Below, one piece after another: positions 1 through 14,776 of a DNA stretch of 14,776 nucleotides. The notes under the pieces are model-generated. The model saw only the letters and a program-made list of their open reading frames with translations. It made no database searches and had not been told where the DNA came from. Numbering within the stretch: the first letter of the stretch is position 1; each line of letters opens with the position of its first letter. Source of the DNA: a virus. The stretch lies in IMG/VR virus record IMGVR_UViG_3300042807_000125. One strand, 5' to 3'. Made by a program: the position numbers and the translations under genes.

Positions 1-104
1 AAAGAAAGCACCGACATGAACCCGACAACAAACAACACTCACACAAACCGAGGACAAGGCGCGCAAGCGCCGCGTCAGCGCAAGCGAAGCGCGCGAGCAT
101 GACA
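1..104. repeat. Left copy of an exact 104-bp direct terminal repeat (identical to 14673..14776)
   Basis: Base-by-base comparison shows nt 1-104 (aaagaaagcaccgacatgaacc...gcgcgagcatgaca) equal nt 14673-14776. The repeat runs to both window edges and includes the terminase ATG (99-101 = 14771-14773). Confidence 0.95.
16..102 (+). CDS. Candidate 28-aa Arg/Lys-rich leader ORF (MNPTTNNTHTNRGQGAQAPRQRKRSARA), stop overlapping the terminase start (ATGA)
   Basis: ATG at 16 lies 7 nt after the purine tract GAAAG (4-8). The TGA at 100-102 overlaps the terminase ATG at 99-101. It is below the ORF-track length cut-off, and the only evidence is its geometry. Confidence 0.2.
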   Translation: MNPTTNNTHTNRGQGAQAPRQRKRSARA

Positions 105-1832
105 CGCAAACTAACCGAACACGACACAGCGATCTACAAACAGGCACGTGCTGAACTACTGCGCGACCAACCATTGTGTCATTGGTGCAAACGCAACACA
201 GCAACAGAACTAGACCACCTAGTCGAATCGGACAAAGGCGGAACAATAGAAGACGGATACGTCGCAGCATGCAAACCATGCAACTCTGCGCGCGGAGCAA
301 CATACCGAAACAAAAAACTAGCCAACGCAAAACACGCAAGGGAAAAAGCAATAAACGATTTTTTATACAGCTCCGAGATGCCCCCGAGCCCCATCCATCA
401 TTTTGTCGCCACCAGCCCTGATCAGCCTAAACTGGCGCCAACTGGCCATGATCGGCCGAGACTGGAAACGATCATCCCAGACCATGCCGGCTCACTAGCT
501 GGACTTGTGGGGGACATGGCTAAGAAGGTGCTTCAGATTGATTTGATGCCTTGGCAAATACATGCTCTTGAGGGAATTCTGGCGGTTGACGCTGATCAAA
601 AGTTTGTGCATCGTTCGAGCCTTGTGTCGGTTGCGCGTCAGAACGGTAAGACAACAATTATTCAGGCGTTGATCTTGTTTTGGCTTGTGGAGATGCCAAA
701 GATTCGAGGCGGTAAGCAGACTGTTGTTTCGGGCGCGCACCGCTTGGATTTGGCTTGCTTGTTGTTTGATGATTTGGCACCAATCCTTGAGGAGTATTAC
801 GGAGCCAAGATCGTAAAGTCGTACGGCCGTTATCAGGCCACAATGCCAGACGGCAGCAAGTGGTGGGTAAAAGCATTAAAGCCAAACCAAGGTCACGGTA
901 TGAGCATTGACCTAGTGATCGTTGACGAACTTTTTGACGTCAACCCTGACTCTGTAGAAGGCGGTCTGTTGCCGGCACAGCGCGCACGTAAAAATCCCTT
1001 GGCGTGTTTCTTTAGCACGGCTGGCACGGAAGAATCGGTGCTGTTTCAGCGTTGGCGTGAGGCTGGCATTCGAGCAATTGACAAAGGTGAGCCGTCAACG
1101 ATGTATATGGCGGAATGGTCGCCTGACCCAAGTCTTGACCCGTTGCATCCAGCGTCATGGGCGTGGGGTAATCCTGCACTTGGCCACACGTTGGACATGG
1201 ACACCATCAGGCAAGAGTCCACCAACCCTGATCGTGCATCATTTTTGCGCGCATCCCTAAACCTTTGGGTAAGTGTTGTGCGCGGATGGATTGAGCCAGG
1301 TCGTTGGCCGTCATTGGAATACACAGGTGACATCCCTAGCGGTGGGGTCGTGGCGATCGAGTCTTCGCTGGACGATTCCCGATACAGCGCGACCAGATGC
1401 GTCAACCTGTCAGACGGTCGGGTGCTTGTCACCGTGGCATTTATTGCCGAGTCAATTACAGAGCTGTGGGAAAACGTGCATGAACTTGCCAAAGACCCGA
1501 CGATCAGGTTCGCCCTGTCGCCGACCGTGGACGCAACGTGCCCACCGAACATTGAGCGCCGCAGGGTCGTGGTCGGCTACGCCGAACTTGGACGGTTTAC
1601 ACCGCTAGCCAAAAACATGATCGCCGAAGCACGCTTACTGCACACAGGAGAAAAACTGTTAGCCGAACACGTTCAGCGCGCGGTTGCGGTACGCACGGAT
1701 AACACCATAGTTTTGTCCAGTAAGCGGAGTCCAGGGCCTATTGAATTAGCGCGAACAATGGTCTGGGGAATTGGCATGTGTGCCCGTCCAGTTAACAGCG
1801 GAAAGCCCATGCTTGTCGCGGTAAATAACTAA
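99..1832 (+). CDS. HNH endonuclease fused to large terminase subunit (577 aa)
   Basis: N-terminus has a Zn-finger HNH motif: C27-x2-C30, D39-H40, C58-x2-C61-N62 (nt about 177-296). From about residue 145 it shows Terminase_1-type TerL features: DLMPWQ, Walker A VARQNGKT (630-653), Walker B-like DLVIVDE, and a C-terminal RNaseH-like segment (VVAIESSLDDSRYSATRCV). The ORF is single and uninterrupted. Confidence 0.9.
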   Translation: MTRKLTEHDTAIYKQARAELLRDQPLCHWCKRNTATELDHLVESDKGGTIEDGYVAACKPCNSARGATYRNKKLANAKHAREKAINDFLYSSEMPPSPIHHFVATSPDQPKLAPTGHDRPRLETIIPDHAGSLAGLVGDMAKKVLQIDLMPWQIHALEGILAVDADQKFVHRSSLVSVARQNGKTTIIQALILFWLVEMPKIRGGKQTVVSGAHRLDLACLLFDDLAPILEEYYGAKIVKSYGRYQATMPDGSKWWVKALKPNQGHGMSIDLVIVDELFDVNPDSVEGGLLPAQRARKNPLACFFSTAGTEESVLFQRWREAGIRAIDKGEPSTMYMAEWSPDPSLDPLHPASWAWGNPALGHTLDMDTIRQESTNPDRASFLRASLNLWVSVVRGWIEPGRWPSLEYTGDIPSGGVVAIESSLDDSRYSATRCVNLSDGRVLVTVAFIAESITELWENVHELAKDPTIRFALSPTVDATCPPNIERRRVVVGYAELGRFTPLAKNMIAEARLLHTGEKLLAEHVQRAVAVRTDNTIVLSSKRSPGPIELARTMVWGIGMCARPVNSGKPMLVAVNN

Positions 1833-1917
1833 GATAAACGCGGCGACCGCGCACCTTGCCTTTTGTCGGAATCGGATAAGTCATGCGCGGTTGCCACTTG
1901 TATGACAAAGTAGGAAC

Positions 1918-3024
1918 ATGGCGATCTTTAACAAAACCAAAAAAGCAGCAATAAGCCCAGCGCCAAGCGTGGCAGCTGCGGTTGCTGGCGGTTACACAAG
2001 TAACGCTGCCGGCGTAAGCATGATCGGCCAGTACTACAGTTACCAAGAAGGCGAAGCACGCAACCGCGCAATTAGCGTTCCAACAATCAACCGCGCTCGA
2101 GATTTGATGGCATCAGTAATTGGTTCAATGCCATTGCGTATGTACAACGAAATGTGGAACGGCGACGAAATGGAAAAAGTGTACATTGCGCCACGTTCAT
2201 GGTTGCGCCGACCAGACCCAACCGTGCCATATCAGTTCATCATGTCTTGGACACTTGACGATCTCATGATGTTTGGTCGCGCATTCTGGTACATCACATC
2301 ACGCACCGCTGACGGTTACGCCGCGTCCTACACCCGTTTGCCTGCCGGCTCAATAACCACGACCGACATGGTTGGTCCCGTCTGGTTCGCACCATCCAAA
2401 GAAGTGTATTTCAACGGCGGAATGTTAGACCCAGCAAACCTTGTTCAATTTCTATCACCAGCGCAAGGCATGATCTACTCGGCACCAGGCGCAATAGAAA
2501 CCGCGCTAAAACTTGAAGCAGCACGCAACCGTAACGCATCGTCAAGCATCCCTGCCGGCGTACTAAAACAAACTGGTGGCGAACCATTAAGCGCGCAAGA
2601 GTTGGCTGATTTGGCTAGCGCGTTTAATGCCGCTCGAGCAACAAATCAAACTGCTGCGCTTAACGAGTATTTGACATACACGGAAACAAACAGCACGCCA
2701 GACAAGATGCTATTGATTGAAGCATCGCAATATCAGGCGCTTGAAATGTCACGCCTAGCAAATGTACCCCCATATTTGGTGGGCGTGGCAACTGGCGCAT
2801 ACTCGTACCAGTCAAGCCAACAGGCGCGTGCGGATCTGTACTTGTTTGGCGTGAAGTTGTATGCCGACGCAATTGCAAGCGCATTGTCAATGGACAACGT
2901 GCTACCGCGTGGCACTTATGTTGAGTTTGACGCTGACGAATACCTAGAAGAAAACTTTATGGCCGACCGCGCAGACGACGAAGTAATTGTTAGAGAAAAC
3001 ACACAAGAGGAGTTATCACGATGA
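1918..3024 (+). CDS. Portal protein, HK97-type (368 aa)
   Basis: It sits directly after the terminase. Portal-like blocks are present: WLRRPDP, MFGRAFWYI, IPAGVLK, LSAQELADL, and QALEMSRLANVPPYLVG (the typical eIa..fgVPp.llg block). Its stop overlaps the next start (ATGA at 3021). Confidence 0.88.
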   Translation: MAIFNKTKKAAISPAPSVAAAVAGGYTSNAAGVSMIGQYYSYQEGEARNRAISVPTINRARDLMASVIGSMPLRMYNEMWNGDEMEKVYIAPRSWLRRPDPTVPYQFIMSWTLDDLMMFGRAFWYITSRTADGYAASYTRLPAGSITTTDMVGPVWFAPSKEVYFNGGMLDPANLVQFLSPAQGMIYSAPGAIETALKLEAARNRNASSSIPAGVLKQTGGEPLSAQELADLASAFNAARATNQTAALNEYLTYTETNSTPDKMLLIEASQYQALEMSRLANVPPYLVGVATGAYSYQSSQQARADLYLFGVKLYADAIASALSMDNVLPRGTYVEFDADEYLEENFMADRADDEVIVRENTQEELSR

Positions 3025-4619
3025 TCAAACTAATTGCAGGAGAGTTCACGCTTGACGCTGCCAAAGGCGACGCACCACGACGCACCATAAGCGGAGTAGC
3101 CGTCCCATACAACGTGCCGGCAGTAGTCAGCGATGGCACAGCTGTGATCTTTCGTCCAGGCTCATTGCCAGTTGAAGGCAAAGCACCACGTCTATTTATG
3201 TACCACCAGGCTGATATGCCAGTCGGCGTTGTCACGGAACGTGCAGAAACCGAGCAAGGAATGTTGTTTAGCGCCAAAATCAGCGCAACCAGCCTCGGCA
3301 ACGACGCTCTTGTCATGGCCATGGATGGCACCATTGACCAAGTATCCGTTGGCGTAAATCCAACCAAGTTCTCGTACGACGAAGAAGGCACAATGGTCAT
3401 TGAGGCCGCCGACTGGATGGAATTGTCCCTAGTTCCGATCGGCGCTTTTGGCGATGCAGCAAACATCACCAAAGTCGCAGCGAGTATCCACCAAGAGCCC
3501 GAAGAAGTAGTGTTAAATGAAGAAGCAACCCCAGTAGAGGAGAAACAAGAAATGTCCGAAGTAAACGAAAACGCAGTCGAGGCAACCATCCCTACTGCAC
3601 CAGTATTTGCACAAGCAAAGCGCAAGTTTGATCTGCCAACCGCAGGCGAATACCTCGCAGCAATGCACATCGGCGGAGAAACATTCCGCAACGTTGCAGC
3701 AGCCGCACGCGAGTTTGCAATCTCAAAGCAAACGGCATTACAAGCAGCTGCAGGTGACGTGCTCACCACCGATACACCTGGTCTTTTGCCAGTACCAGTT
3801 CTTGGCCCAGTATTTGAGGACTTGAACTACATCCGTCCAGTAGTCGCAGCAGTAGGCGCTCGCGCAATGCCAGACGGTGGCAATCAAAAAACTTTTATCC
3901 GTCCAACGTGGACAACCCACACGTCGGTAGGCGCACAGTCACCTGAACTTTCAGGAGTATCAGCAACAACCCCAATTATTGCCTCGAACGTGTGCACAAA
4001 AACAACCCTAGCTGGGCAGGTCACCCTCTCAGTTCAGGATGTTGACTTCACGAGCCCCGCAGCAATGGAAATTATTTTGCGTGACCTTGCAGGACAGTAC
4101 ATGTTGCAAAGCGACAACGTGGCAGCAGACGCCATCGTCGCCGGTGCACAAGCATCGGGCGCAACTTGGACAGTCAACCAGACAGACCCATCATCGTTGA
4201 TCACCGCGCTTTACGGTGCAGCAGTCAACATTTTGACCGACACCAACTTCTTGCCTGATCACATTTTTGTGTCACCAAACGTTTGGGAATTGTTGGGTCG
4301 TCAGCTTGACGTGGACAAGCGTCCAGTATTCCCTTACACGGGCGCAGCAGGACTCATGGGCGTAAACGGCATGGGCACAGGCGGAGTTACACAAGCAAAC
4401 GTATTCAACCCATTCGGATTGAACCTCGTTGCAGACCGCAACTTTGCCAGCAACACCATGGTCGTTGCACGCGGAACCGCAATCGAGTTTTACGAGCAGG
4501 TACGAGGATTGATGTCAGTAGAAGCACCATCAACCCTTGGCCGCACATTCTCGTATTACGGATACGTGTCCACATTCATCGCTGACGCCGACCAGGTGCA
4601 GTCGATCGCTTTGGCTTAG
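3021..4619 (+). CDS. Prohead protease (S78/HK97 family) - linker/delta-like region - HK97-fold major capsid protein, one 532-aa ORF
   Basis: Residues about 20-150 match the S78 protease pattern (ISGVAVPYN, LFMYHQADMPVGV with His62, IDQVSVGV with Ser109, ELSLVPIGAFGDA). Residues about 150-250 form an acidic/helical linker. Residues about 250-532 match the HK97 capsid pattern (LLPVPVLGPVFEDL, LAGQVTLSVQDVDF, HIFVSPNVWELL, FGLNLVADRN). Confidence 0.9.
   Translation: MIKLIAGEFTLDAAKGDAPRRTISGVAVPYNVPAVVSDGTAVIFRPGSLPVEGKAPRLFMYHQADMPVGVVTERAETEQGMLFSAKISATSLGNDALVMAMDGTIDQVSVGVNPTKFSYDEEGTMVIEAADWMELSLVPIGAFGDAANITKVAASIHQEPEEVVLNEEATPVEEKQEMSEVNENAVEATIPTAPVFAQAKRKFDLPTAGEYLAAMHIGGETFRNVAAAAREFAISKQTALQAAAGDVLTTDTPGLLPVPVLGPVFEDLNYIRPVVAAVGARAMPDGGNQKTFIRPTWTTHTSVGAQSPELSGVSATTPIIASNVCTKTTLAGQVTLSVQDVDFTSPAAMEIILRDLAGQYMLQSDNVAADAIVAGAQASGATWTVNQTDPSSLITALYGAAVNILTDTNFLPDHIFVSPNVWELLGRQLDVDKRPVFPYTGAAGLMGVNGMGTGGVTQANVFNPFGLNLVADRNFASNTMVVARGTAIEFYEQVRGLMSVEAPSTLGRTFSYYGYVSTFIADADQVQSIALA
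3552..4619 (+). CDS. Candidate nested in-frame product: delta/scaffold-like region plus major capsid protein without the protease (355 aa)
   Basis: In-frame ATG (codon 178) at 3552 is preceded by GAGGAG (3537-3542) with 9-nt spacing. It falls at the protease/capsid domain boundary. Confidence 0.35.
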   Translation: MSEVNENAVEATIPTAPVFAQAKRKFDLPTAGEYLAAMHIGGETFRNVAAAAREFAISKQTALQAAAGDVLTTDTPGLLPVPVLGPVFEDLNYIRPVVAAVGARAMPDGGNQKTFIRPTWTTHTSVGAQSPELSGVSATTPIIASNVCTKTTLAGQVTLSVQDVDFTSPAAMEIILRDLAGQYMLQSDNVAADAIVAGAQASGATWTVNQTDPSSLITALYGAAVNILTDTNFLPDHIFVSPNVWELLGRQLDVDKRPVFPYTGAAGLMGVNGMGTGGVTQANVFNPFGLNLVADRNFASNTMVVARGTAIEFYEQVRGLMSVEAPSTLGRTFSYYGYVSTFIADADQVQSIALA

Positions 4620-4623
4620 TCAA

Positions 4624-4640
4624 GAGCGGGCTAACCGCTC
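4624..4640 (+). promoter_or_regulatory. Stem-loop GAGCGG-gctaa-CCGCTC between the capsid stop and the next ATG
   Basis: Perfect 6-bp stem (4624-4629 / 4635-4640) with a 5-nt loop. It starts 5 nt after the capsid TAG and ends at the base before ATG 4641. There is no U-tract, so it is not a classical intrinsic terminator. Confidence 0.4.
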
Positions 4641-5273
4641 ATGGCAACATACACAGTTACCAACAAGTACCTGATTGACAACTTTGCCGTACTGCAACTC
4701 CTGACCCCATCGGAGATTGCAGTCGGCAATTCAATCACGGTTGCTGGGGTTGATGCAACATTTAACGGTACCTACACGGTGCGCGCATTGCCACAGTATT
4801 TGTTTATTGGTATTGATACGCAAGGCGATCTGCTTTACGACTACCAGTTTCCTATTGCCGATCAGGTGTTGTATGCCAAAACCGCTAATGGCGTTGATCG
4901 AGTGGCGGCGTCTGGCACCGTGTCCTATGCGCCAGTTTGCACATGGGTAACGGCCTCGGATGTTATGATTTATCTTGGCATTACCATTGCTAACCCGTCA
5001 GACGATTACACGTTGCTCACGCAATCCGTGTCAGCAGGCAACCAGTTCTGTTATCGCAGGCGTCAGGAAAGCGGTTATATCGACTCCCTAACGACCTCGC
5101 CAGGCGGAGACGCAACATTAGGCACCTTGATGTATTGCGCCGCTCTATGGCGCTCTAGAGGGTCAATAGAGGCAACCTACGCCACGTTTGACGGCATGGG
5201 TTCGGCACCACAGCAAAGCCTGACCCCGATCGTCAAGCAGCTGCTTGGCATCCCACGTCCAGCGGTTGCCTAA
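4641..5273 (+). CDS. Head-tail adaptor/connector (gp6-like C-terminal half) with an extra ~100-aa N-terminal domain (210 aa)
   Basis: It sits directly after the capsid gene. The C-terminal half (WVTASDVMIYLGI...DDYTLLTQSVSAGNQFCYRRR) resembles the Phage_connect_1/gp6 pattern. The N-terminal half has no match I recognise. Confidence 0.5.
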   Translation: MATYTVTNKYLIDNFAVLQLLTPSEIAVGNSITVAGVDATFNGTYTVRALPQYLFIGIDTQGDLLYDYQFPIADQVLYAKTANGVDRVAASGTVSYAPVCTWVTASDVMIYLGITIANPSDDYTLLTQSVSAGNQFCYRRRQESGYIDSLTTSPGGDATLGTLMYCAALWRSRGSIEATYATFDGMGSAPQQSLTPIVKQLLGIPRPAVA

Positions 5274-5635
5274 TGGCTTACACCGACCTGTTCAACGAAG
5301 CAATTGATGACGTCACCGCAACGCTGACCGCTGTGTCTGGGCTCCGTGTTGTCAACGACCCAACAAAACTTGTGCCAAATTGCGTGTATTTGGATGCACC
5401 AAACTTCACAACAATTGCTGGCAACGGCAACGTGATACGCCTCGAGTTCCCTGTAAAGGTGATCGGGTCAGGCCCAGCAGGTCTGCCGGTACTGCGTCAA
5501 ATTTTAAGCATTGTGGCAAGCGTGCTTGGCTCGCCGATTATTGTTATGGCTGGCCGTCCGTCAAGCCTTGAGATTGGTGGCGCGCTATACCCGTGCTACG
5601 ACCTTGATTGCGCTATCCAAGCCCAGACTTCGTAA
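5273..5635 (+). CDS. Small head-tail joining / tail-terminator-like structural protein (120 aa), function uncertain
   Basis: TAATG overlap with the adaptor gene. Its size and its position between the adaptor and tail tube genes fit this role, but no diagnostic motif is present. Confidence 0.45.
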   Translation: MAYTDLFNEAIDDVTATLTAVSGLRVVNDPTKLVPNCVYLDAPNFTTIAGNGNVIRLEFPVKVIGSGPAGLPVLRQILSIVASVLGSPIIVMAGRPSSLEIGGALYPCYDLDCAIQAQTS

Positions 5636-5693
5636 TCCACTACGAGCGAACATAAATAATCTAATATCAGAACAGAACTAAGGAGCAACACAC

Positions 5694-6107
5694 ATGGCTA
5701 GCGCAACATACCTCTCGAATCCAGTCCTCACGATCAACAGCGTTGATTTGACCGACATGTGCACCGCAGCGACATTGACCTACCTGGTTGAAGCGCTCGA
5801 AGACACCGCATTTGGCACCAACTCACGCAGTTACACCGCAGGCCTTGCCAACAACGAAGTAACCTTGACGATGTACGCATCATTTGCTGCAACCGAAACT
5901 TACGCAACATTGCAGCCTTTGGTTGGCACCAAAACCAACATCACCTTGCAACCAGCATCAGGCAGCGAATCAGCAACCAACCCAAAGTTTGTTTTGACTG
6001 GTTGCTACCTTGAATCATTGCCAGTTATCAACGCATCCCTTGGCGAATTGTCAACCTATGACCTCACGTTCATGGGTGGCGCGTTGACGATTGACACCAC
6101 CGTATAA
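5694..6107 (+). CDS. Major tail (tube) protein (137 aa)
   Basis: It has the strongest SD in the window (AAGGAG 5680-5685, 8 nt before the ATG), after an AT-rich spacer. It lies directly upstream of the chaperone/frameshift pair and the tape measure. The protein is small and rich in beta-forming Thr/Ala residues. Confidence 0.6.
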   Translation: MASATYLSNPVLTINSVDLTDMCTAATLTYLVEALEDTAFGTNSRSYTAGLANNEVTLTMYASFAATETYATLQPLVGTKTNITLQPASGSESATNPKFVLTGCYLESLPVINASLGELSTYDLTFMGGALTIDTTV

Positions 6108-6137
6108 ACAACGGCTCCAAGCCGACATAGGAGAAAC

Positions 6138-6437
6138 ATGAAAATCAAGTTGGAATTAAAGCGCACGCCCGACAGCGCGCCCGAGTACTACTACACCAAC
6201 CTGTTTGTGGTTACCGAATGGGAACGGCTTGAGCGTCGCAACATTCAGCAACTATCAACGCAACCGCTTTACAGCGATTACTGCTGTTGGATGCACACGA
6301 TTTTAAAACTTAAAGGCGAGCAAGTTGGCGACAACTGGCGTGAATGGATTAGCAAGAACCCAGAGCTGGAGATCATTCCGGTATTGGACGAGACTGACCC
6401 AAACCCTACGGACGCGGCACCTACCGCCGCCAACTAG
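6138..6437 (+). CDS. Tail assembly chaperone, zero-frame product (G-like, 99 aa)
   Basis: SD AGGAG lies upstream. The gene sits between the tail tube and tape measure genes, has an acidic C-terminus, and contains a slippery heptamer near its 3' end. Confidence 0.7.
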   Translation: MKIKLELKRTPDSAPEYYYTNLFVVTEWERLERRNIQQLSTQPLYSDYCCWMHTILKLKGEQVGDNWREWISKNPELEIIPVLDETDPNPTDAAPTAAN

Positions 6438-6547: not shown

Positions 6548-6548
6548 C

Positions 6549-7061: not shown

Positions 7062-8380
7062 TGGCAATTAATATCCCGATCATTTCAGAGTTTGACGGCA
7101 AAGGGATTAAGAAGGCTATTGCCCAATTTAAGCAACTGGAAACAACGTCAGAAAAAGCCCAGTTTGCTATCAAGAAAGCGGCGGTGCCGGCAGCTGCGGC
7201 GCTTGGCGGTTTGGCGTTGGCGCTTGGTGACGCAACCAAGGCTGCAATGGAAGATCAGCAGGAACAGGCGGCGTTAGCGCTTACTTTGCAGAATGTGACT
7301 GGCGCGGGAGCCGCGCAAACCGCACAGATTGAAGATCAGATCAGCGCAATGTCTCGAGCGTCTGGCATCGCTGACACCGAGTACCGCAAGAGCCTTGAGG
7401 CTTTGGTGCGCGGTACAAAAGATGTTGACCTTGCCATGAAAGACATGAATCTTGTCATGGACATCAGCACAGCGCTCCAGATGGACAGTTCCACCGTGGC
7501 CGACGCATTGGCCAAGGCATACCAGGGCAACTTTAAGGCGCTCCGATCATTGACTCCAGAAATGGCAACAATGATTAAAGAAGGCGCAAGCCTGAACGAA
7601 GTCATGGACGTGCTTGGCGGTACGTTCGGCGGAGCAACCGCAGTTGCAGCAGACACCGCTGCAGGAAAAATGAAAATCTTGTCTAACTCAATTGGCGAAA
7701 CAAAAGAGTCAATCGGTGCAGCGCTGTTGCCCGTGCTTGAAGCCGTTTTACCTGTGCTAAACAAATTTGCTGCATGGGCTCAAGACAACCCCAAAGCATT
7801 TCTTTTCATTGCTGGAGCAATTGGCGCAGTCGCCGCAGCAATTGTCGCCACTAACATTGCAATGGCACTCAACCCATTCAGCCTTATTGCAGCAGGCATC
7901 GCATTGCTAATTGTAGGTTTAGTTGCCGCATACAACAAGTTTGAGTGGTTTCGCGATGGAATTAACCTTATCGTTAACACCGTTATCGGGTTTTTTGCTG
8001 GCATGGTCAACGCTGCAATTGGCGCGGTCAACGCAATTATTAGCGCGTACAATTCAATACCGTTGTTGCCAGATATTCCAAAAGCCCCAACAATGCCAGT
8101 ACCACAGTTAGGTGCAACAGGCCCAGCAACACAAGTTCCGCGCAAGATTCCGCGCATGGCTGAAGGTGGCATCGTAGATCAGCCAGGTGGGATGCTTGCT
8201 GTGATTGGTGAAGCAGGCCCAGAAGCAGTCGTGCCATTAGACCGAATGCAAACAGGCGGCGGAATAACTATCAACGTCACAGGCGGACTTGCCACAAGTG
8301 CCGAAATCGGTGAATCGGTCGTTAACGCTTTGCGCGCCTATTCGCGTAGCGCTGGGCCGTTGCAGTTACAGGTGGCGTAA
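7061..8380 (+). CDS. Tape measure protein (439 aa)
   Basis: It follows the chaperone region. The N-terminal half is long, Ala/Leu-rich and helical. There is a central hydrophobic block (FLFIAGAIGAVAAAIVATNIAMALNPFSLIAAGIALLIVGLVAAY). TAATG overlaps occur at both ends. Confidence 0.85.
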   Translation: MAINIPIISEFDGKGIKKAIAQFKQLETTSEKAQFAIKKAAVPAAAALGGLALALGDATKAAMEDQQEQAALALTLQNVTGAGAAQTAQIEDQISAMSRASGIADTEYRKSLEALVRGTKDVDLAMKDMNLVMDISTALQMDSSTVADALAKAYQGNFKALRSLTPEMATMIKEGASLNEVMDVLGGTFGGATAVAADTAAGKMKILSNSIGETKESIGAALLPVLEAVLPVLNKFAAWAQDNPKAFLFIAGAIGAVAAAIVATNIAMALNPFSLIAAGIALLIVGLVAAYNKFEWFRDGINLIVNTVIGFFAGMVNAAIGAVNAIISAYNSIPLLPDIPKAPTMPVPQLGATGPATQVPRKIPRMAEGGIVDQPGGMLAVIGEAGPEAVVPLDRMQTGGGITINVTGGLATSAEIGESVVNALRAYSRSAGPLQLQVA

Positions 8381-9669
8381 TGCCAGGCACAGCCGTAGTC
8401 AATTCAGGCAACTATGACCTAAAGATCGCAACAGGTTTTCAAGTTGACGCGTTCGTGCTCGACGACTCATTAAAGGGCGTGCTTGACAATACGACCTATG
8501 TGCTGGACGGCACAACCGAGTTTTCCGATGTCATGGACTCAACTATCAGCATCAATGTGCGCCGCGGTCGCCGTGACGTGGGCGATCAGTTCAGCGCCGG
8601 CACAATGACATTTACCATTCAGGACGTGGACGGGATATTTAACCCGTTTGACCAGAACAGCCCGTTTTACGACACTCCGCAATCTAAGCCTGGGCTTGCC
8701 CCATTGCGCGCAGTACAGCTCATCCGTTACAGCAACACCAATGTGCCCGAATCATTGTTCAGCGGTTATGTCGTCAATTATGATTACAACTTTGCGCTTG
8801 GCGGTCTAGACACCGTTACCGTGTATTGCGCTGACCAGTTTTATCTATTGGCACAAACCTACTTAGACGAATTAAACGTCACTACGGAAACATCAGGAGA
8901 ACGCATAGAAACAGTCCTAGATCTACCAGAAGTTGACTTTCCTGCAGGCGCTCGAAGCATCGCTACAGGCACCGTCAACCTAGGCCACGACAGCCCTTAT
9001 ACCGTGCCGGCAGGAACAAATGCGCTGCAATACCTAACCCAGATCAACGAAACCGCCGAGTTTGGGCGTTTGTTTATGTCAAGGGCTGGGGTGCTTACAT
9101 TCCAAAATCGCATCGGTACAACTTTAAGCGCGCCTATGGCAGAGTTTAAAGATGACGGCACAGGGTACAAGTTTGATGGCGTAGGCATCTCATTTGAAGC
9201 GGATTCGGTAATCAACAGATCAGTTGTTACAGGCTTAGACGGGGACAGTTACACAGCAACGGACGCTGGCTCAATCGCCACATATTTTATACAAACCTCA
9301 AGCATCACTAACAGCCTGTTGCATGAAGCTGCGCAAATACAAGCAGCTGCCGAATACTTGCTAAACCCAGAGCCCGAACCGCGCTATACGTCCGTGGCAA
9401 CCAAATACCTAATGCTGACCACAGCCCAAAAAGACACCTTGGCAACTGTTGATATTGGTGACACAATCAGCGTAGAAAAGACGTTTGCTAGCGGTACTGG
9501 CACAAGCCAGTTGGCTCAAGAGCTGTCAGTTGAGGGCATAGAGCATCGTCTGGATTTCAGCACAGGCCACAGCGTGCTGTACTCAACCGCGCCAACCACG
9601 ATCGTCTATGAACTCATCTTGGATGACGCGGTGTATGGCACACTCGACGCAGAGAATGTTTTAGGATAA
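8380..9669 (+). CDS. Distal-tail (Dit)-like minor tail protein with C-terminal extension (429 aa)
   Basis: It lies immediately after the tape measure. The N-terminal pattern ISINVRRGRRDVGDQFSAGTMTFTIQDVDGIFNP...LRAVQL...LFSGYV...VTVYCADQFYLL matches the motif common in the first minor tail protein of actinobacteriophages. Confidence 0.6.
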   Translation: MPGTAVVNSGNYDLKIATGFQVDAFVLDDSLKGVLDNTTYVLDGTTEFSDVMDSTISINVRRGRRDVGDQFSAGTMTFTIQDVDGIFNPFDQNSPFYDTPQSKPGLAPLRAVQLIRYSNTNVPESLFSGYVVNYDYNFALGGLDTVTVYCADQFYLLAQTYLDELNVTTETSGERIETVLDLPEVDFPAGARSIATGTVNLGHDSPYTVPAGTNALQYLTQINETAEFGRLFMSRAGVLTFQNRIGTTLSAPMAEFKDDGTGYKFDGVGISFEADSVINRSVVTGLDGDSYTATDAGSIATYFIQTSSITNSLLHEAAQIQAAAEYLLNPEPEPRYTSVATKYLMLTTAQKDTLATVDIGDTISVEKTFASGTGTSQLAQELSVEGIEHRLDFSTGHSVLYSTAPTTIVYELILDDAVYGTLDAENVLG

Positions 9670-9678
9670 GGAGCACTT

Positions 9679-10062
9679 ATGGCAACTAGGCAAAGTTTCA
9701 CCGCTGGACAGGTACTAACCGCCGCGCAACAAAACGCTTTGGCTACCGCGCAAATTGCGTTGAACGCACAAACAGGCACGTCGTACACCGCTGTGCTCGC
9801 AGACGACGGCGATCTCGTAACGCTTGACAATGGTTCAGCAATTACTTTTACAATTCCACCATCCAGCAGCGTTAACTTTGGTATCGGCACCCAGATCAAC
9901 ATCATGCAACTAGGCGCAGGTCAGGTCACAATTACGCCTGGCGCTGGCGTCACAATCCGATCGGCCAACTCACGACTCAAAACCACAGCACAGTATTCTG
10001 TTGCAACTTGCGTAAAAATCGCAACGGACACTTGGGTCGCTGTCGGCAGTCTCAGCGCATAA
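9679..10062 (+). CDS. Small minor tail / fibre-like protein (127 aa)
   Basis: SD AAGGAG lies upstream. The N-terminus (SFTAGQVLTAAQQNALA) resembles the conserved N-terminal motif of many phage tail-fibre proteins. It sits within the tail-tip block. Confidence 0.45.
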   Translation: MATRQSFTAGQVLTAAQQNALATAQIALNAQTGTSYTAVLADDGDLVTLDNGSAITFTIPPSSSVNFGIGTQINIMQLGAGQVTITPGAGVTIRSANSRLKTTAQYSVATCVKIATDTWVAVGSLSA

Positions 10063-10066
10063 CGCT

Positions 10067-10924
10067 ATGCAAATCTTGGCCATTGACGGCATACCTGCAT
10101 TAGATGTTGAATATCTATTAGTTGCTGGCGGTGCTGGCGGTGGCGGCGACATCGGCGGTGGCGGTGGTGGTGGCGGTGTATTAAACGCAACGATTGCTCG
10201 AGCGGTCAGCACAAACTATTCGTTAACAATTGGCGCAGGTGGTGTAGGCGGATTGAACTTGCAGCGCGGTGCAGACGGCAACTCAACAACAGGGTTTGGT
10301 CTTACTGCCACATACGGCGGAGCTGGTGGTGCCACCACGTTGCTCAATGGTTCACCAGGTGGCTCAGGCGGTGGTGGTTCACAAACAGGTACCGGTGGCG
10401 CTGGAACATCAGGCCAAGGAAACAACGGCGGTGCAGGTGTCTCGTCAACAAGTTTTGCTGGCGGTGGTGGCGGCGGCAAAAACGCTGTCGGTTCAGATGC
10501 AACTGCTTCACTTGCCGGCGCTGGCGGTGCTGGAATTACCACAACTATTAGCGGTTCAAGTCAGGTTTACGGCTCAGGCGGTGGTGGTGGTTTCTTAAAC
10601 ACAACTTCAGCAAATACTGGGAACCGTGGCATCGGTGGAACTAACGCAGGTTCAGGCGGCGTTTCATCGGGCCCGAGTGGAACGATTATTAACACAGCAT
10701 CCGCTGGATCTGCCAACTTTGGCGGCGGTGGTGGTGGCGGTGGTTGGAACACAGGGTCAAACTCTCAAGGAGCGTCTGGTGGTTCTGGCGTGATTGTTCT
10801 CAAATACCCAGAGCAATACACCATTACGGTCGGCGCAGGTCTAACAGGTTCAACAGCAACAGTTCCTAACGGTTTTAAAGTTACAACAATTACCGCTGGT
10901 ACAGGAAACGTGAGTTGGGTGTAA
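10067..10924 (+). CDS. Glycine-rich minor tail / putative receptor-binding protein (285 aa)
   Basis: My hand count gives about 91 of 285 residues as Gly. There are two 8-Gly runs, plus 5- and 6-Gly runs each followed by x-N. The C-terminal block is GGSGVIVLKYP. It lies at the end of the tail module. Confidence 0.6.
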   Translation: MQILAIDGIPALDVEYLLVAGGAGGGGDIGGGGGGGGVLNATIARAVSTNYSLTIGAGGVGGLNLQRGADGNSTTGFGLTATYGGAGGATTLLNGSPGGSGGGGSQTGTGGAGTSGQGNNGGAGVSSTSFAGGGGGGKNAVGSDATASLAGAGGAGITTTISGSSQVYGSGGGGGFLNTTSANTGNRGIGGTNAGSGGVSSGPSGTIINTASAGSANFGGGGGGGGWNTGSNSQGASGGSGVIVLKYPEQYTITVGAGLTGSTATVPNGFKVTTITAGTGNVSWV

Positions 10925-11151
10925 TGGCACACTACGCATTTTTAGACGACAACAACATTGTGACCGAAGTAATTGTCGGCATTGACGAAACTGAACTTAT
11001 TGAAGGCTTAAGCCCAGAAGAATGGTATGCAAATTACCGCGGCCAAACATGCAAACGCACGTCTTATCACGGCAACATTCGAGGCCGCTACGCCGGCAAA
11101 GGTATGCGCTATGACGAAACACTTGACGAATTCGTAGAAATTACAGAATGA
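10924..11151 (+). CDS. Hypothetical protein (75 aa), MAHYAFLDDNNIV... type often seen beside phage tail-fibre genes
   Basis: ATG 10924 overlaps the upstream stop (TAATG). I prefer it to the track's TTG at 10915. Confidence 0.6.
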   Translation: MAHYAFLDDNNIVTEVIVGIDETELIEGLSPEEWYANYRGQTCKRTSYHGNIRGRYAGKGMRYDETLDEFVEITE

Positions 11152-11152
11152 A

Positions 11153-11317
11153 ATGGCTGTTGAGATTGTGGTTTCTCTGGTCGGTGGGGGTTTCGCTGTG
11201 GTGGTGGCGCTCATCAGCAAAATCGGATACGACAACAAAAAAGACCACGGCATCGTACACAAAGCCTTAGGGCGAATAGAAGAAAAGATAGACAACCATG
11301 TTGAAAATCACCGATAA
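11153..11317 (+). CDS. 54-aa single-pass membrane protein (lysis-cassette accessory / holin-like)
   Basis: It is not in the ORF track (under 60 aa). The ATG lies 1 nt after the upstream stop. It has an N-terminal TM segment (AVEIVVSLVGGGFAVVVALI) and a charged C-terminal tail. Confidence 0.45.
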   Translation: MAVEIVVSLVGGGFAVVVALISKIGYDNKKDHGIVHKALGRIEEKIDNHVENHR

Positions 11318-11501
11318 AGACAAAGCAATGTTTGCTAGTTACCTGCGTTCAGTTGTCGGCGCACTCATTGCTGTTTACTCGACAGGCACCACAGACCCAG
11401 CCGACTACGGCAAAGGCGCGATCGCTGCAATCATCCCACCATTGCTCCGCTGGGTAAACCCAAAAGACGCAGGATTTGGTCGTGGCGACAGCCAAAGCTA
11501 A
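11298..11501 (+). CDS. Putative holin (67 aa, two hydrophobic segments)
   Basis: Hydrophobic segments VVGALIAVYSTG and GAIAAIIPPLLRWV are followed by a polar C-terminus. It lies directly upstream of and overlapping the endolysin gene. Confidence 0.5.
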   Translation: MLKITDKDKAMFASYLRSVVGALIAVYSTGTTDPADYGKGAIAAIIPPLLRWVNPKDAGFGRGDSQS

Positions 11502-12003
11502 CCCCAACTCACGGCCATATATTGGCAATAGTGACGGCCCAGCAGCAGGCCCACGTGCCGGCATGAATGAGTTTATTAAACAAGTGATTAATCATTCTGG
11601 TGGCGCGCTTTGGAACAACGGGTCGTACGGTCAGCGCGACATGAAAGGCAAGCCAGGCAGTTTGTCCGTGCATGCAACTGGTCGCGCGGTTGACATGTCG
11701 TATCGAGGGAGTGCACGTCATCCGCAATCGTCACGCAAATCAGCATTGCCATTTATTGAGCGTATGGTTGCCAACGCGAACGATCTTGGAATCCAGATGG
11801 TGATTGATTACTTCCCATCGCCGTACGGTCGCGCATGGAAATGTGACCGACAGGCTTGGCAGAAGTACAGCAAGCCAACAGTCAGCGGTGCACCTGGCGG
11901 AGACTGGTTCCACATCGAGATATCACCACAAGCTGCGGATTCGGTGATCTTCGTCAAAGCCGCATTCTTAAAGGTGTTCGGGGAAATCCCACCCAAGGCT
12001 TGA
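11482..12003 (+). CDS. Endolysin, LAS-family (M15-like) zinc peptidase
   Basis: It carries an exact S-x-H-x-x-G-x-A-x-D motif (SVHATGRAVD) and a distal DWFHIE histidine motif. The start is uncertain: GTG 11482 has AGGA 7 nt upstream, and the alternatives are TTG 11476 (ORF track) and ATG 11563. Confidence 0.85.
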   Translation: MATAKANPNSRPYIGNSDGPAAGPRAGMNEFIKQVINHSGGALWNNGSYGQRDMKGKPGSLSVHATGRAVDMSYRGSARHPQSSRKSALPFIERMVANANDLGIQMVIDYFPSPYGRAWKCDRQAWQKYSKPTVSGAPGGDWFHIEISPQAADSVIFVKAAFLKVFGEIPPKA

Positions 12004-12043
12004 TCTATGTTCTAGGGTCGGAGTACCGACAAAAGGACAGGCA

Positions 12044-12220
12044 ATGACTGAACCGCAGATCGTTGATTACAGCGTCTATACAGGAGTGATGGACAACGGC
12101 CAAGAAATCTTGGTACAGATCTTTACCAGCCCAGAGTCGGGCAAGTTCTTATTAGGACAAATCGCATTTAGATCGGCAACCTCAACTTGGGGTCAGCCCA
12201 TACCTTTGGAGAAAAAATGA
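12044..12220 (+). CDS. Hypothetical 58-aa protein
   Basis: It is not in the ORF track. Its sequence is MTEPQIVDYSVYTGVMDNGQEILVQIFTSPESGKFLLGQIAFRSATSTWGQPIPLEKK. The stop overlaps the next ATG (ATGA at 12217-12220). Confidence 0.45.
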   Translation: MTEPQIVDYSVYTGVMDNGQEILVQIFTSPESGKFLLGQIAFRSATSTWGQPIPLEKK

Positions 12221-12726
12221 ACTATTTTGCAGAGAAAATTATAGGGCTAGTGCTTTGTACGGTCTTTGGCTTTACGGTCGCTGTGGGGGCTCCTGACGCG
12301 TCTGGTAGCCCGTCTGACACTATCGCCCTAGCGCCGTTAGCAGTACAGCCGTACCTAATTGAGCCAACCACGACCACCAGCTCAACGATCTTTATAGACC
12401 CGGACGCATCGGCTTGCAATCAGTTCAGCGCGTTAGCAGTCAACCTTGGCTGGCCTGCCGATCAGCGCACCGTACTCGAATCAATCATGTTCCGCGAATC
12501 GCGCTGCATACCAAACGCGGTCAACAGCAAAGACCCAAACGGGGGCAGTCGTGGGCTTATGCAAATTAACGGATTCTGGACACCATGGCTAACCGATGCC
12601 GGCATTATCAACCAGGTGGATGATCTGTTACAGGCTCAAACTAATCTGCTCGCAGCATTAGCAATTTACAACTACGGGGTCGAGCGTCATGGCTACGGCT
12701 GGGGACCATGGAGCGCAACAAAATGA
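12217..12726 (+). CDS. Membrane-anchored / secreted lytic transglycosylase (SLT domain, 169 aa)
   Basis: I prefer ATG 12217 (ATGA coupling) to the track's TTG at 12187. The N-terminal hydrophobic segment is IIGLVLCTVFGFTVAVGA, followed by a Thr/Ser-rich linker. SLT motifs are present: FRESRC (catalytic Glu-Ser), GLMQIN, AIYNYG. Confidence 0.8.
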   Translation: MNYFAEKIIGLVLCTVFGFTVAVGAPDASGSPSDTIALAPLAVQPYLIEPTTTTSSTIFIDPDASACNQFSALAVNLGWPADQRTVLESIMFRESRCIPNAVNSKDPNGGSRGLMQINGFWTPWLTDAGIINQVDDLLQAQTNLLAALAIYNYGVERHGYGWGPWSATK

Positions 12727-12986: not shown

Positions 12987-13007
12987 CCGACAAGGGAGAT
13001 TCCGACA

Positions 13008-13406
13008 ATGAAAACCTGCACAATTTGCAAAGGCTCAATTGCCTACCCAGAGATCACAGGCAAAACACATTTCGTTTGTGACGGCCGTGTACCGGCAAGA
13101 AAACATGCGCCATTTATCCAAGGAATGTTGGCGTCACAATCGTCTGCTGATGCGCGTTGGACACGCGATGAACAAAACAAAGTTGATGCAGCGATCTTGC
13201 ACGTTGCGCGCACAAAAGGGTTCTTCACATCGGACGACATTTGGCAACACCTGGGCGACCAGTTTCCCGTCACCAAAGGCATCGCTGGACGGTTGAACGC
13301 AGCTGCGCGTCGTGGCATTATCCGTAACACGGGCGAACTGGCATACGCACAGCGCGGTGGCGCACATGACCATGCACAACGTTTAAGCGTCTGGGCAGGC
13401 ATCTAA
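13008..13406 (+). CDS. Putative Zn-ribbon plus winged-helix-like DNA-binding protein (132 aa)
   Basis: SD GGGAG lies upstream. The N-terminus has C4-x2-C7...H21-x2-C24. The C-terminal half (FFTSDDIWQHLG...GIAGRLNAAARRGIIRNTGE...RLSVW) looks like a wHTH. The function is inferred only. Confidence 0.4.
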   Translation: MKTCTICKGSIAYPEITGKTHFVCDGRVPARKHAPFIQGMLASQSSADARWTRDEQNKVDAAILHVARTKGFFTSDDIWQHLGDQFPVTKGIAGRLNAAARRGIIRNTGELAYAQRGGAHDHAQRLSVWAGI

Positions 13407-13951
13407 TGGGCTTTGATCTAAGCAACTACGAAACAGTCGAATCGCGTCTAGTCCGCTGGTGGGCTGCATACCCGAACGGGCGCGTGTACACAATGATGAT
13501 GAACTACACAGGCGACGCTTGCGTGTTCTATTGCGAACTATACGCCGACAAAGAAGACAAGGTGCCAGTCGCTACAGGCTACGCAGAAGAAATCAAAAGC
13601 GACCGCGGTGTCAATGCCACATCGTTTGTAGAGAACTGTGAAACGAGCGCGATCGGTCGCGCGATCGCTAATTGCCCTTTACAGGCGCCTGCTAGTGGCC
13701 CTAGACCGTCACGCAATGAGATGCAAAAGGTTGAGCGTTTAACAACTCCACCGCAACCGCAACCGCACACACCCTCTGGCGCGTTTGCCACGCCTAAGCA
13801 GATCGGCTACATCAAGAAACTGGCTAAAGATGCCGGCATGGACGATCTTCGACTGTTGGAGTTAATCCAGCGCGAACTGAACAGCGATGAAGCGGTGTTA
13901 GAGCTGTTGAAATCACATGAAGCAAGCAGAATCATTGAGGTACTGAAATGA
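13406..13951 (+). CDS. Possible Rad52/Sak-like single-strand annealing or ssDNA-binding protein with a PQ-rich linker and helical C-terminal tail (181 aa)
   Basis: The core pattern YETVESRLVRWW...ATGYAEE...ENCETSAIGRAIAN resembles the beta-beta-beta-alpha core and the (K/E)xAxS/TxAxxRA helix of Rad52-superfamily SSAPs. The call is tentative. Confidence 0.3.
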   Translation: MGFDLSNYETVESRLVRWWAAYPNGRVYTMMMNYTGDACVFYCELYADKEDKVPVATGYAEEIKSDRGVNATSFVENCETSAIGRAIANCPLQAPASGPRPSRNEMQKVERLTTPPQPQPHTPSGAFATPKQIGYIKKLAKDAGMDDLRLLELIQRELNSDEAVLELLKSHEASRIIEVLK

Positions 13952-14094
13952 CGTTAGAAGAACTGATCACAAACATTGAGCGCTTACAGAGCGTGTACAA
14001 CAGCATGGTTGACCCTGAACAGCACGAAGCAAGGCAATACGTGCGTTGGGCAATCAAGCACCTTGCAGACAAGACGTACATGGCTGCGCTGTAA
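13948..14094 (+). CDS. Hypothetical 48-aa helical protein
   Basis: It is not in the ORF track. There is an ATGA overlap upstream and a TAATG overlap downstream. Its sequence is MTLEELITNIERLQSVYNSMVDPEQHEARQYVRWAIKHLADKTYMAAL. Confidence 0.45.
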   Translation: MTLEELITNIERLQSVYNSMVDPEQHEARQYVRWAIKHLADKTYMAAL

Positions 14095-14438
14095 TGAAAC
14101 TTGACCCGAAGATCAGCGAAACCGACTTCAAGGATGTCGTCATTAGCATCGCCAAACGTTACGGCTGGCTAATTCACCATGACTTGCCGGCACAAAACAG
14201 TCGAGGGCGTTGGGCAACGCATGTGCAGGGTGATGTGGGGTTTCCTGATCTGTTTATGGTGCACCCATTCCAAGGCGGTCGGCCGTTAGTCATTGAGTTA
14301 AAAGCAGAGAAGGGCAAGACGACACCTGGGCAGAAGGTTTGGTTAAAGGCGTGTGAGTTGGCTGGATGTCATGCAGCGGTTTGGAAGCCAAGTGACATGG
14401 AGTACATTCTCTACACCTTGAGCAATCCAAGAATGTAA
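14094..14438 (+). CDS. VRR-NUC domain nuclease (114 aa)
   Basis: PD-(D/E)xK signature: GFPDLFMV ... LVIELK, followed by TPGQKVWL. I prefer ATG 14094 (TAATG overlap) to the track's TTG at 14046. Confidence 0.85.
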   Translation: MKLDPKISETDFKDVVISIAKRYGWLIHHDLPAQNSRGRWATHVQGDVGFPDLFMVHPFQGGRPLVIELKAEKGKTTPGQKVWLKACELAGCHAAVWKPSDMEYILYTLSNPRM

Positions 14439-14451
14439 ACAATCGGCTAGT
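14435..14451. repeat. Box A copy 1: GTAAAC-AATCGGCTAGT
   Basis: The 11-mer AATCGGCTAGT (14441-14451) recurs exactly at 14576-14586. The GTAAAC prefix also recurs (14568-14573), with a 2-nt insertion in copy 2. Confidence 0.8.
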
Positions 14452-14474
14452 AGCAAGCACCTATCAGAGTCGCG

Positions 14475-14489
14475 TCTGGTCGGGTAGAG
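14475..14489. repeat. Box B copy 1: TCTGGTCGGGTAGAG
   Basis: It recurs at 14614-14627 as TCTGGT-GGGTGGAG (one indel, one mismatch). Each box B lies about 40-46 bp after a box A, so the A...B unit appears duplicated. Confidence 0.65.
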
Positions 14490-14509
14490 GTCGCGGTAAC
14501 GCGGGTAGA
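14481..14509. repeat. Three helically phased short boxes: CGGGTAGA (14481), CGCGGTAA (14492), CGGGTAGA (14502)
   Basis: The exact 8-mer CGGGTAGA occurs twice, 21 bp apart, with a related box midway (about 10.5-bp phasing). The palindrome GGCGCGCC follows at 14512-14519. Confidence 0.6.
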
Positions 14510-14567
14510 TCGGCGCGCCCCAAATCATGCAAGACGAAATGAAACGGGCAAAGCGTCGAGGCGAGCC

Positions 14568-14586
14568 GTAAACATAATCGGCTAGT
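14568..14586. repeat. Box A copy 2: GTAAAC-at-AATCGGCTAGT
   Basis: See copy 1. The two 11-mers are 135 bp apart. Confidence 0.8.
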
Positions 14587-14613
14587 GAGTGCAAAGGGAA
14601 CCAGGTTGGGCAA

Positions 14614-14627
14614 TCTGGTGGGTGGAG
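14614..14627. repeat. Box B copy 2: TCTGGTGGGTGGAG
   Basis: See copy 1. Confidence 0.65.
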
Positions 14628-14672
14628 CATTCACACATCTCTTGACCTGCAGATGACATACAGTTAACAAAC

Positions 14673-14776
14673 AAAGAAAGCACCGACATGAACCCGACAA
14701 CAAACAACACTCACACAAACCGAGGACAAGGCGCGCAAGCGCCGCGTCAGCGCAAGCGAAGCGCGCGAGCATGACA
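14673..14776. repeat. Right copy of the exact 104-bp direct terminal repeat
   Basis: It is identical to 1-104 and ends with atgaca, which is the start of a second copy of the terminase ORF. Confidence 0.95.

Follow-up and report, generated by a model that had tools for sequence, protein, structure and literature searches.

The stretch of DNA analysed here is the IMG/VR virus record IMGVR_UViG_3300042807_000125 (14,776 nucleotides), and we refer to this whole stretch as the window. Its first gene, g1, is an open reading frame (ORF) in which an HNH endonuclease domain is followed by a large terminase subunit (TerL), and the probable cohesive end site (cos) of the phage lies inside that frame. 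Taking all lines of evidence together, we consider it quite likely that the window is the complete genome of a cos-packaging siphovirus whose cos site falls within the HNH-TerL frame. Genes were assigned by PHROG and Pfam searches, with further NCBIfam and relaxed Pfam searches. The features at this locus, in window coordinates, are the following.

1–104, no strand: left copy of the terminal repeat, identical to 14673–14776; read as an overlap from assembling a circular or concatemeric form
14673–14776, no strand: right (redundant) copy of the terminal repeat, identical to 1–104
99–1832, plus strand: g1, predicted 577-amino-acid (aa) fusion of HNH endonuclease, linker and TerL (PHROG terminase, E 2.6e-50, and HNH, E 1.9e-10; Pfam TerL_nuclease above cutoff)
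99–370, plus strand: HNH domain of g1 (aa 1–90), at the presumed right end of the virion DNA and without a stop codon of its own
384–460, plus strand: disordered linker of g1 (aa 96–120), from an AlphaFold2 (AF2) model and alignment
383–393, plus strand: putative cos cohesive end, an 11-nt 3' overhang CCCGAGCCCCA, placed by contig-end pile-ups; part of the PPSPI codons in the g1 linker

Genome unit and physical ends

Bases 1–104 match bases 14673–14776 exactly, and the match ends at 104, leaving a non-redundant unit of 14,672 bp (51.7% G+C). The join between 14672 and 1 is traversed unbroken by 67 independent related metagenome contigs or loci from IMG/VR. Many related contigs of ~14–16 kb are permuted with respect to the window, and the mapped relatives of 25–30 kb contain more than one unit head to tail, with g1 appearing again after g23 and with no host or foreign flanks. 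Self-overlap periods in the relatives range from 14.1 to 15.0 kb. The unit is a complete one, and in practice a chimeric join can be dismissed. The original prediction, made from the letters of the window, had described identical 104-nt ends, 14,672 unique bp and a complete, self-closing genome, and the related contigs bear this out.

Several IMG/VR "genomes" of 24.7–30.5 kb (L051/L141, L137/L162, L151/L199, L149 and L187) are multi-unit walks that mix related strains, with overlaps that are 75–97% identical; these entries exaggerate the genome size about two-fold. A larger genome inferred from the 25–30 kb contigs was rejected, because each of these contigs walks through related strains over more than one unit. 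Another data set (JGI 3300007165) holds a contig of 10,169 nt (L202, Ga0079302_1000499) that is 100% identical to window positions 8–10176, and gene calling there extended g1 as far as the contig end (607 aa, partial call).

The 104-nt repeat arose as an overlap when a circular or concatemeric molecule was assembled, and it is not a biological terminal repeat. One relative (L084) has an exact terminal repeat of 127 nt at the equivalent of window position ~11,995, and because this repeat sits at another genome position, the 104-nt repeat of the window is an arbitrary overlap. The contig would overlap itself by 104 nt because it was assembled from a cos-joined circle or concatemer.

The physical ends were placed by mapping the true contig ends of relatives onto the window, which yielded distinct left and right ends, 119 of each. 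With a chance expectation of ~0.008 contig ends per position, 17 of the 119 distinct starts fall exactly at 394 (TCCATCATTTTG...), while 11 of the 119 distinct ends fall at 382 or 383 (...GAGATGCC); counted by eye, ...GATGCC terminates at least 13 contigs. The two pile-ups do not overlap, and the 11 nt omitted between them are CCCGAGCCCCA (383–393). A break in an assembly graph produces overlapping ends, whereas end-polishing of 3' overhangs produces a gap. The 11-nt gap, rather than an overlap, therefore fits 3' overhangs that were lost in end-polishing.

This site resembles ends that are known from cultured phages. Cluster AN Arthrobacter phages have experimentally defined 11-base 3' extensions, CCCGCGCCACC (PMC5679792), and CCCGAGCCCCA is identical to these at 8 of 11 positions. 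The record ends of Kels (L200), Naby (L286) and Root (L287) share a common cos-flank layout with window positions 355–415, namely a T-run, ~18–21 nt, the C-rich overhang and then a T-run 5–8 nt into the left end; window 394–415 is similar to GTCTTCATTTTCACCAG, the Naby left end. HK97-type cos packaging involves fixed ends, and for the window these are indicated by proxy, through the contig-end pile-ups and the likeness to the AN ends. Altogether, we infer a cos phage with an 11-nt 3' overhang at 383–393. Where the original prediction had asked whether the terminal identity reflected an assembly overlap, a short repeat or cos ends, the pile-ups point to cos ends, at 383–393 and not at the window ends. 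The ends would be cohesive and lie 290 nt inside the first gene. Database labels that treat such contigs as genomes with direct terminal repeats are misleading.

The HNH-TerL frame running through cos

The part of g1 that separates the HNH domain from the terminase contains positions 383–393, in codons 95–99 (P-P-S-P-I). The ATG at 99 is the first start codon past an upstream in-frame stop. In 77 of 77 motif-bearing loci with enough flank, the frame across cos is open, spanning 560–640 codons and representing ~60 distinct proteins; one of these loci carries an in-frame 11-aa insertion. Among 52 indel-free sequences, synonymous diversity is 0.06 at codons 91–105 vs ~0.3 elsewhere, and amino-acid conservation is lowest at these same codons. 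Such a combination marks a DNA element overlaid by a peptide that is itself only loosely constrained.

The AF2 model of g1 has a predicted local distance difference test (pLDDT) score of 89.9, and the sole segment below 50 comprises residues 96–111. Its best structural match in the PDB is the TerL of HK97 (6z6d, E 2e-22), and the Walker A (R180, Q181, K184) and Walker B (D276, E277) residues are near-invariant. The family matches and the AF2 model support the fusion of HNH and TerL that had been proposed from the sequence, and g1 would be translated as a single fused HNH-TerL protein.

Fused proteins of ~555–635 aa occur in at least 25 clusters (50% identity) of a set of 1.84 billion representative proteins, at 26–51% identity to g1. 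Their linkers vary, with a Pro-rich patch kept in the same place. In one sister lineage (P0001; 51% identity, contigs of 15.4–16.7 kb), at least 16 contigs start right after ...CCCCCGCGCCCA, within codons for L-P-P-R-P, and in P0005 and further lineages, identical contig starts are again found directly upstream of the TerL core. Both the P0001 and the P0005 lineages encode fused proteins on contigs that span the site. Given this breadth and the sister lineages, the arrangement is a trait of a broad group and not an accident of this contig. Several sister lineages of 14.3–16.7 kb phages (L244–L285 for P0001; L290–L343 for P0005 and further lineages) each have many contigs from different samples that share one start nucleotide, which in the P0001 and P0005 lineages is a fixed place in the linker. 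Such shared start nucleotides imply that cos ends would be fixed across the whole group, and the spacing in the P0005 lineage suggests that its overhang may differ.

No family or homologue of the small terminase subunit (TerS) was found among the window proteins by PHROG, Pfam, relaxed Pfam, NCBIfam or blastp searches, and a blastp comparison of the RRH1 TerS and the first genes of Kels, Naby and Root with the full set of window proteins likewise yielded no credible match. Nor does the window have any gene between cos and the TerL core. HK97-type cos packaging combines a separate TerS with an HNH gene beside the terminase; the window has the HNH beside the terminase and no separate TerS that could be recognised. 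It is thus possible that the phage lacks TerS.

Going further, we tentatively propose, as a possibility that falls short of being probable, that there is a widespread group of 14–16 kb phages with a single-chain, TerS-less HNH-TerL protein and a gene that holds its own cleavage site. A fused terminase without TerS, if real, would be a minimal cos-packaging machine. The cos sequence and the protein linker would then co-evolve, with the C-rich overhang read as Pro-Pro-Ser-Pro, and the joining of the ends would be a switch built into terminase expression. It is unusual for a gene to be split by the termini of its own genome, and we found no description of an HNH-TerL fusion or a cos-spanning gene in the open-access literature.

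Gene content, capsid and tail

The window contains 23 plus-strand ORFs with short gaps, arranged in terminase-to-lysis order and followed by a few small genes. The features other than those listed above are as follows.

14439–14672 and on into 1–98, plus strand: main non-coding region, 332 bp; the single large intergenic region, which spans the join
16–102, plus strand: upstream ORF (MNPTT...) of 27–28 codons; its stop overlaps the g1 start (ATGA)
1918–3024, plus strand: g2, portal protein (Pfam Phage_portal, E 1e-25)
3021–4619, plus strand: g3, fusion of S78 prohead protease, linker and major capsid protein (phrog_2263, E 4.5e-95; Pfam Peptidase_S78; precomputed PF25209 Phage_capsid_4)
4641–5273, plus strand: g4, possible head-tail connector/adaptor with an N-terminal extension of ~100 aa (weak match to phrog_5938, E 0.003, at aa 103–175 of 210 only)
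5273–5635, plus strand: g5; position and synteny with Naby gp7 and Root gp8 suggest a head-closure or tail-terminator protein
5694–6107, plus strand: g6, major tail protein (phrog_4574, E 5.9e-23)
6138–6547, plus strand: g7, tail assembly chaperone (99 aa, stop at 6437) with a -1 frameshift extension; heptamer CCCAAAC at 6398–6404
6549–7061, plus strand: g8, tail completion or Neck1-like protein (phrog_5, E 7.9e-5)
7061–8380, plus strand: g9, tape measure protein, 439 aa (several PHROG tape-measure families, best E 1.5e-19)
8380–9669, plus strand: g10, distal tail (Dit-like) protein (phrog_1887 tail protein, E 9.5e-7)
9679–11151, plus strand: g11 (minor tail or fibre C-terminal domain), g12 (Gly_rich_2) and g13, from family matches
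11153–11501, plus strand: g14 and g15, holin candidates with one hydrophobic segment each, as read from the translations
11476–12003, plus strand: g16, candidate endolysin (LAS/M15-type motifs H-x3-G-x-A-x-D and W-F-H; weak match to Peptidase_M15_4, E 0.074, below cutoff)
12187–12726, plus strand: g18, lysozyme-like transglycosylase of SLT_3/SLT type (Pfam SLT_3, E 4.1e-9) with an N-terminal hydrophobic segment
12708–14094, plus strand: g19–g22, small non-structural proteins with function unassigned; g21 belongs to a very large family
14046–14438, plus strand: g23, VRR-NUC nuclease, resolvase-like (Pfam VRR_NUC, E 1.1e-6; phrog_5702 Holliday junction resolvase, E 1.2e-8)

The window has the features of a complete siphovirus-type tailed phage genome (Caudoviricetes): the packaging and head genes comprise TerL, portal and an HK97-fold capsid protein with its maturation protease, and the siphovirus tail module is complete, with the major tail protein, a -1-frameshift chaperone pair, tape measure and distal tail proteins. 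PHROG and Pfam searches of the window proteins matched no sheath family and no integrase. After the canonical slippery heptamer CCCAAAC in g7, the -1 frame is open to 6547, and since 89 of 91 relatives have the extension in this frame, the apparent 111-bp gap after g7 is coding. We read this extension from its sequence as the usual tail-chaperone frameshift. For g5, none of the PHROG, Pfam, relaxed Pfam or NCBIfam searches gave a family match, and for g14 and g15 none was found in PHROG or Pfam. Most relatives have no nucleotide match across ~9,740–11,150 (g11–g13), though they are 80–90% identical elsewhere; this hypervariable block is likely a swapped host-recognition module. As in cluster AN, there may be two wall-degrading enzymes; here, g18 lies downstream of the peptidase-like g16.

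Within the 332-bp non-coding region, column conservation is 0.9–0.99, above that of the flanking genes, and reaches 0.93–0.99 at 14600–14672 and 1–28, which is consistent with a regulatory role. A scan of this intergenic region for sigma-70-like promoters found no site, and promoter/terminator and repeat scans of the window found nothing exceeding chance. The upstream ORF at 16–102 is found in most relatives, and its C-terminal half shifts frame among them; it may be a translational coupling leader rather than a protein. The only long minus-strand ORF (14464–14772) was rejected as a gene, as its translation is Cys/Leu-rich and it is not conserved in relatives. No tRNA was found by a tRNA scan of the window.

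Among the small non-structural proteins, g21 (13406–13951) has 7,860 homologues (90%-identity clusters in a set of 5.8 billion proteins) carrying PF27148, and it matches phrog_11717 (E 7.5e-40), a family of unknown function. Its AF2 model, from a shallow alignment, has a pLDDT of 51, too low for a fold search, and PDB sequence searches with g20 and g21 gave nothing significant. The N-terminal motif ENCETSAIGRA of g21 may resemble that of Rad52-type annealing proteins. No replication families were found among the window proteins by the PHROG, Pfam, relaxed Pfam and NCBIfam searches. We regard this uncultured siphovirus as probably virulent.

These results confirm what the original prediction observed and support its reading of the genome. 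The fusion of protease and capsid in g3 is supported by PHROG and Pfam matches, and records of clusters AN and EE carry an annotation of it as well. The dropping of replication genes is consistent with the family searches and has likewise been reported for cluster AN. An adaptor with an extra domain was also proposed; a connector match is present in g4, and it is weak and confined to the part of the protein given above. The figure of about 330 bp of non-coding DNA fits the single large intergenic region of 332 bp; unassigned sequence totals ~710 bp with this gene set, of which ~110 bp (6438–6547) is coding in the -1 frame. The value of roughly 14.3 kb given for Rhodococcus phage RRH1 is right, as its record is 14,270 bp. 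A position near the lower size limit for long-tailed phages is supported too, but it is less exceptional than the original prediction implied, given that cultured siphoviruses of 14.3–17.5 kb with the same plan are known.

A published model of genome length gives a mean of 11.8 kb (8.1–17.1) for a triangulation number of T=3 and 18.0 kb (13.2–24.5) for T=4, with RRH1 in the overlap (PMC7762592). As 14.67 kb falls in this overlap as well, the earlier claim that the capsid is "well below T=7" is a fair inference, and the model allows T=3 or T=4. The tail would be ~65 nm long by the rule of thumb of 0.15 nm per residue for the 439 aa of g9. With more than 300 related contigs in IMG/VR, this is a very common uncultured lineage among the smallest long-tailed phages, and its genomes of 14.1–15.0 kb lie in the predicted T=3/T=4 overlap, which bears on why no T=3 tailed phage has been seen yet. 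On the tentative reading of a single-chain, TerS-less terminase, the lineage would also be a natural place to seek the long-sought T=3 tailed-phage capsid.

Alternative explanations and comparison with known phages

The exact identity of the two repeat copies could indicate a true short direct terminal repeat (DTR), with the virion ends at the window ends, and the label of DTR genome is often given in databases to contigs that have terminal repeats. We consider this extremely improbable. Among the mapped ends of relatives there is no pile-up at window 1 or 104, the 67 contigs run through the repeat region, the length of the L084 repeat (127 nt) is a common assembler word size, and the fixed ends are found at 382/394 instead; the DTR genome class was rejected on the lack of an end pile-up at the repeat, the different place of the L084 repeat and the relatives that read through. 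Headful packaging of circularly permuted DNA without fixed ends would make the 382/394 pile-up an assembly or sequencing artefact at a C-rich motif. Many of the relatives' contigs are mutually permuted, as this would predict, and the C-rich run CCCCCGAGCCCC could depress coverage; however, even among diverged sequences of different samples, the ends coincide to the nucleotide, with an 11-nt gap between them where a graph break would give an overlap, and the pattern recurs in sister lineages with a different site sequence. In addition, the motif matches the experimentally defined cos end of cluster AN, and an HNH beside an HK97-type TerL is a cos-packaging arrangement, so that we find headful packaging highly unlikely. 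There is hardly any chance, in our view, that the window comes from a larger genome, as a fragment or a chimera, or that it is a helper-dependent satellite, views for which one could cite the very small genome and the absence of recognised replication genes or TerS. The same unit is present in hundreds of contigs without other flanks, its genes cover head, tail and lysis completely, the major tail, chaperone, tape measure and distal tail proteins among them, no integrase was found, and cultured phages of the same minimal plan are autonomous. A satellite of the capsid-forming phage-inducible chromosomal island (cf-PICI) type, which is integrated and has capsid and packaging genes and no tail, was rejected as well, given the full tail module and the lack of an integrase and of host flanks.

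The main rival to a fused protein accepts cos as real and holds that HNH and TerL act separately, either because TerL is made, also or only, from an internal start at M149 or because the fused product is cleaved, in which case the open frame would have no functional meaning. Some database proteins (P0030, P0035, P0040 and P0049) have their start at what corresponds to aa 150, the linker shows disorder and little conservation, and cultured relatives use separate HNH and TerL proteins. Yet the frame is open not only in all 77 loci but also down to 26% identity, despite many linker indels; no stop follows the HNH domain anywhere, no convincing ribosome-binding site precedes M149, and starts at aa 150 are expected from a gene caller on contigs that begin at cos. 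On balance, we judge separate action of the two domains to be unlikely.

Several points weigh against our interpretation of the window as a complete cos genome with a fused terminase. The termini were placed from the ends of other groups' assemblies of relatives, and not from this contig or from reads. A few contigs end at 393 or begin at 379–381, which leaves room for another polarity or length of the overhang. The 104 nt of the terminal repeat match no standard k-mer length. That some database proteins begin at the M149 equivalent means that TerL is possibly produced from an internal start, and these may be gene calls on contigs beginning at cos. The absence of TerS rests on negative sequence searches, and TerS families are very diverse. 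As for the host, a scan of 185,579 species genomes with g1, for a host or a prophage, returned nothing.

If the window is a cos genome with a fused HNH-TerL gene, its life cycle might run as follows. The virion DNA would be linear, with the HNH part of g1 at the right end without a stop and the TerL part at the left end without a start codon. After injection, the ends would anneal and be ligated, restoring an intact HNH-TerL gene, so that full g1 would exist only in end-joined or concatemeric DNA. A gene that holds its own cleavage site means that the packaging enzyme would be encoded only by end-joined DNA and never by the linear virion DNA. The DNA would be replicated by host enzymes, and the VRR-NUC nuclease and the small proteins of unassigned function may contribute. 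HNH-TerL would then cut concatemers at cos within its own gene, and one unit would be packaged into a small capsid built from the self-processing protease-capsid fusion. A short tail would be added, and lysis would be brought about by two small membrane proteins together with the peptidase-like and lysozyme-like enzymes.

A megablast search against 50,697 phage records (INPHARED) gave no nucleotide match. The best protein matches are all to actinophages: TerL is at most 28% identical, with the HNH domain uncovered by any match, and the protease domain is 30–39% identical to clusters EE and AN and Curtobacterium phages. With no nucleotide match and such low protein identity, the window lies outside the genera of these phages and represents a new uncultured lineage of the same kind. 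Membership of the genus Decurrovirus (cluster AN) was rejected, as there is no megablast match and only 5 of the 23 Kels proteins match window proteins, at 27–36% identity. Judged from these nearest relatives, the host is probably an actinobacterium. The genome plan itself is already known, being shared with cultured siphoviruses of 14.3–17.5 kb (RRH1, Kels, cluster AN, cluster EE and Curtobacterium phages), and what distinguishes the lineage is its wrap-around HNH-TerL gene.

The closest parallel is cluster AN (Decurrovirus; Decurro, 15,524 bp, and Kels, 14,830 bp), which has the same siphovirus plan in 14.8–15.6 kb. Cluster AN phages (~15.5 kb) have been described as being among the smallest siphoviruses, beside RRH1 (14,270 bp), with a fused protease-capsid gene and no DNA-metabolism genes (PMC5513430). 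On the circular map, cluster AN and the window share the order HNH, cos, terminase, portal, protease-capsid, adaptor, major tail, tape measure, minor tail, lysis and small genes (DNA-binding in AN), as well as similar C-rich 11-base 3' cohesive ends, those of the window being putative. However, the cluster AN HNH gene ends ~26 nt before the right end, whereas the HNH frame of the window runs through cos into TerL. Between cos and the terminase, cluster AN also has 1–3 small genes, one of them probably TerS, while the window has none; the same 1–3 small genes between cos and TerL are seen across Kels, Decurro, Naby, Root and RRH1. G+C is ~60% in cluster AN vs 51.7% in the window, and cluster AN has one leftward gene where the window has none.

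RRH1, a Rhodococcus phage with the smallest published siphovirus genome (14,270 bp), has a window-like order of terS, terL, portal, fused capsid gene and tail genes, with HNH last. Over 45 aa, its gp20 HNH shares 40% identity with the HNH domain of g1 (E 2e-5), which is also similar to the gp26 HNH of Naby. RRH1 differs in its separate annotated TerS, its separate HNH and an endolysin gene between portal and capsid, and it is a cultured isolate without close sequence similarity, whereas the window phage is known from metagenomes only. Cluster EE of Microbacterium phages (Orlajensenviridae, ~17.4 kb) and the Curtobacterium phages Root and Penoan (~15.1–15.3 kb) share the protease-capsid fusion and the small genome with the window. 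In cluster EE, HNH is the last gene; the right end is C-rich in these phages, and Naby has an annotated chaperone frameshift, as in g7 of the window. Unlike the window, the cluster EE and Curtobacterium phages have larger genomes, a leftward regulatory block and separate HNH and terminase genes, and their identity to the window (30–39%) is confined to the protease domain.

Outside the small actinophages, the system to compare is HK97, whose separate HNH protein gp74 is described in a review as binding TerL and stimulating cos cleavage, with its gene adjoining the terminase genes on the circular map. In g1, the two would be covalently joined. HK97 (TerS gp1, TerL gp2, HNH gp74) provides the best structural match of g1 in its TerL, and in both phages HNH lies beside the terminase. 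In HK97, however, these are three separate proteins and cos is intergenic, whereas the window has one HNH-TerL frame that contains cos, and no TerS was found.

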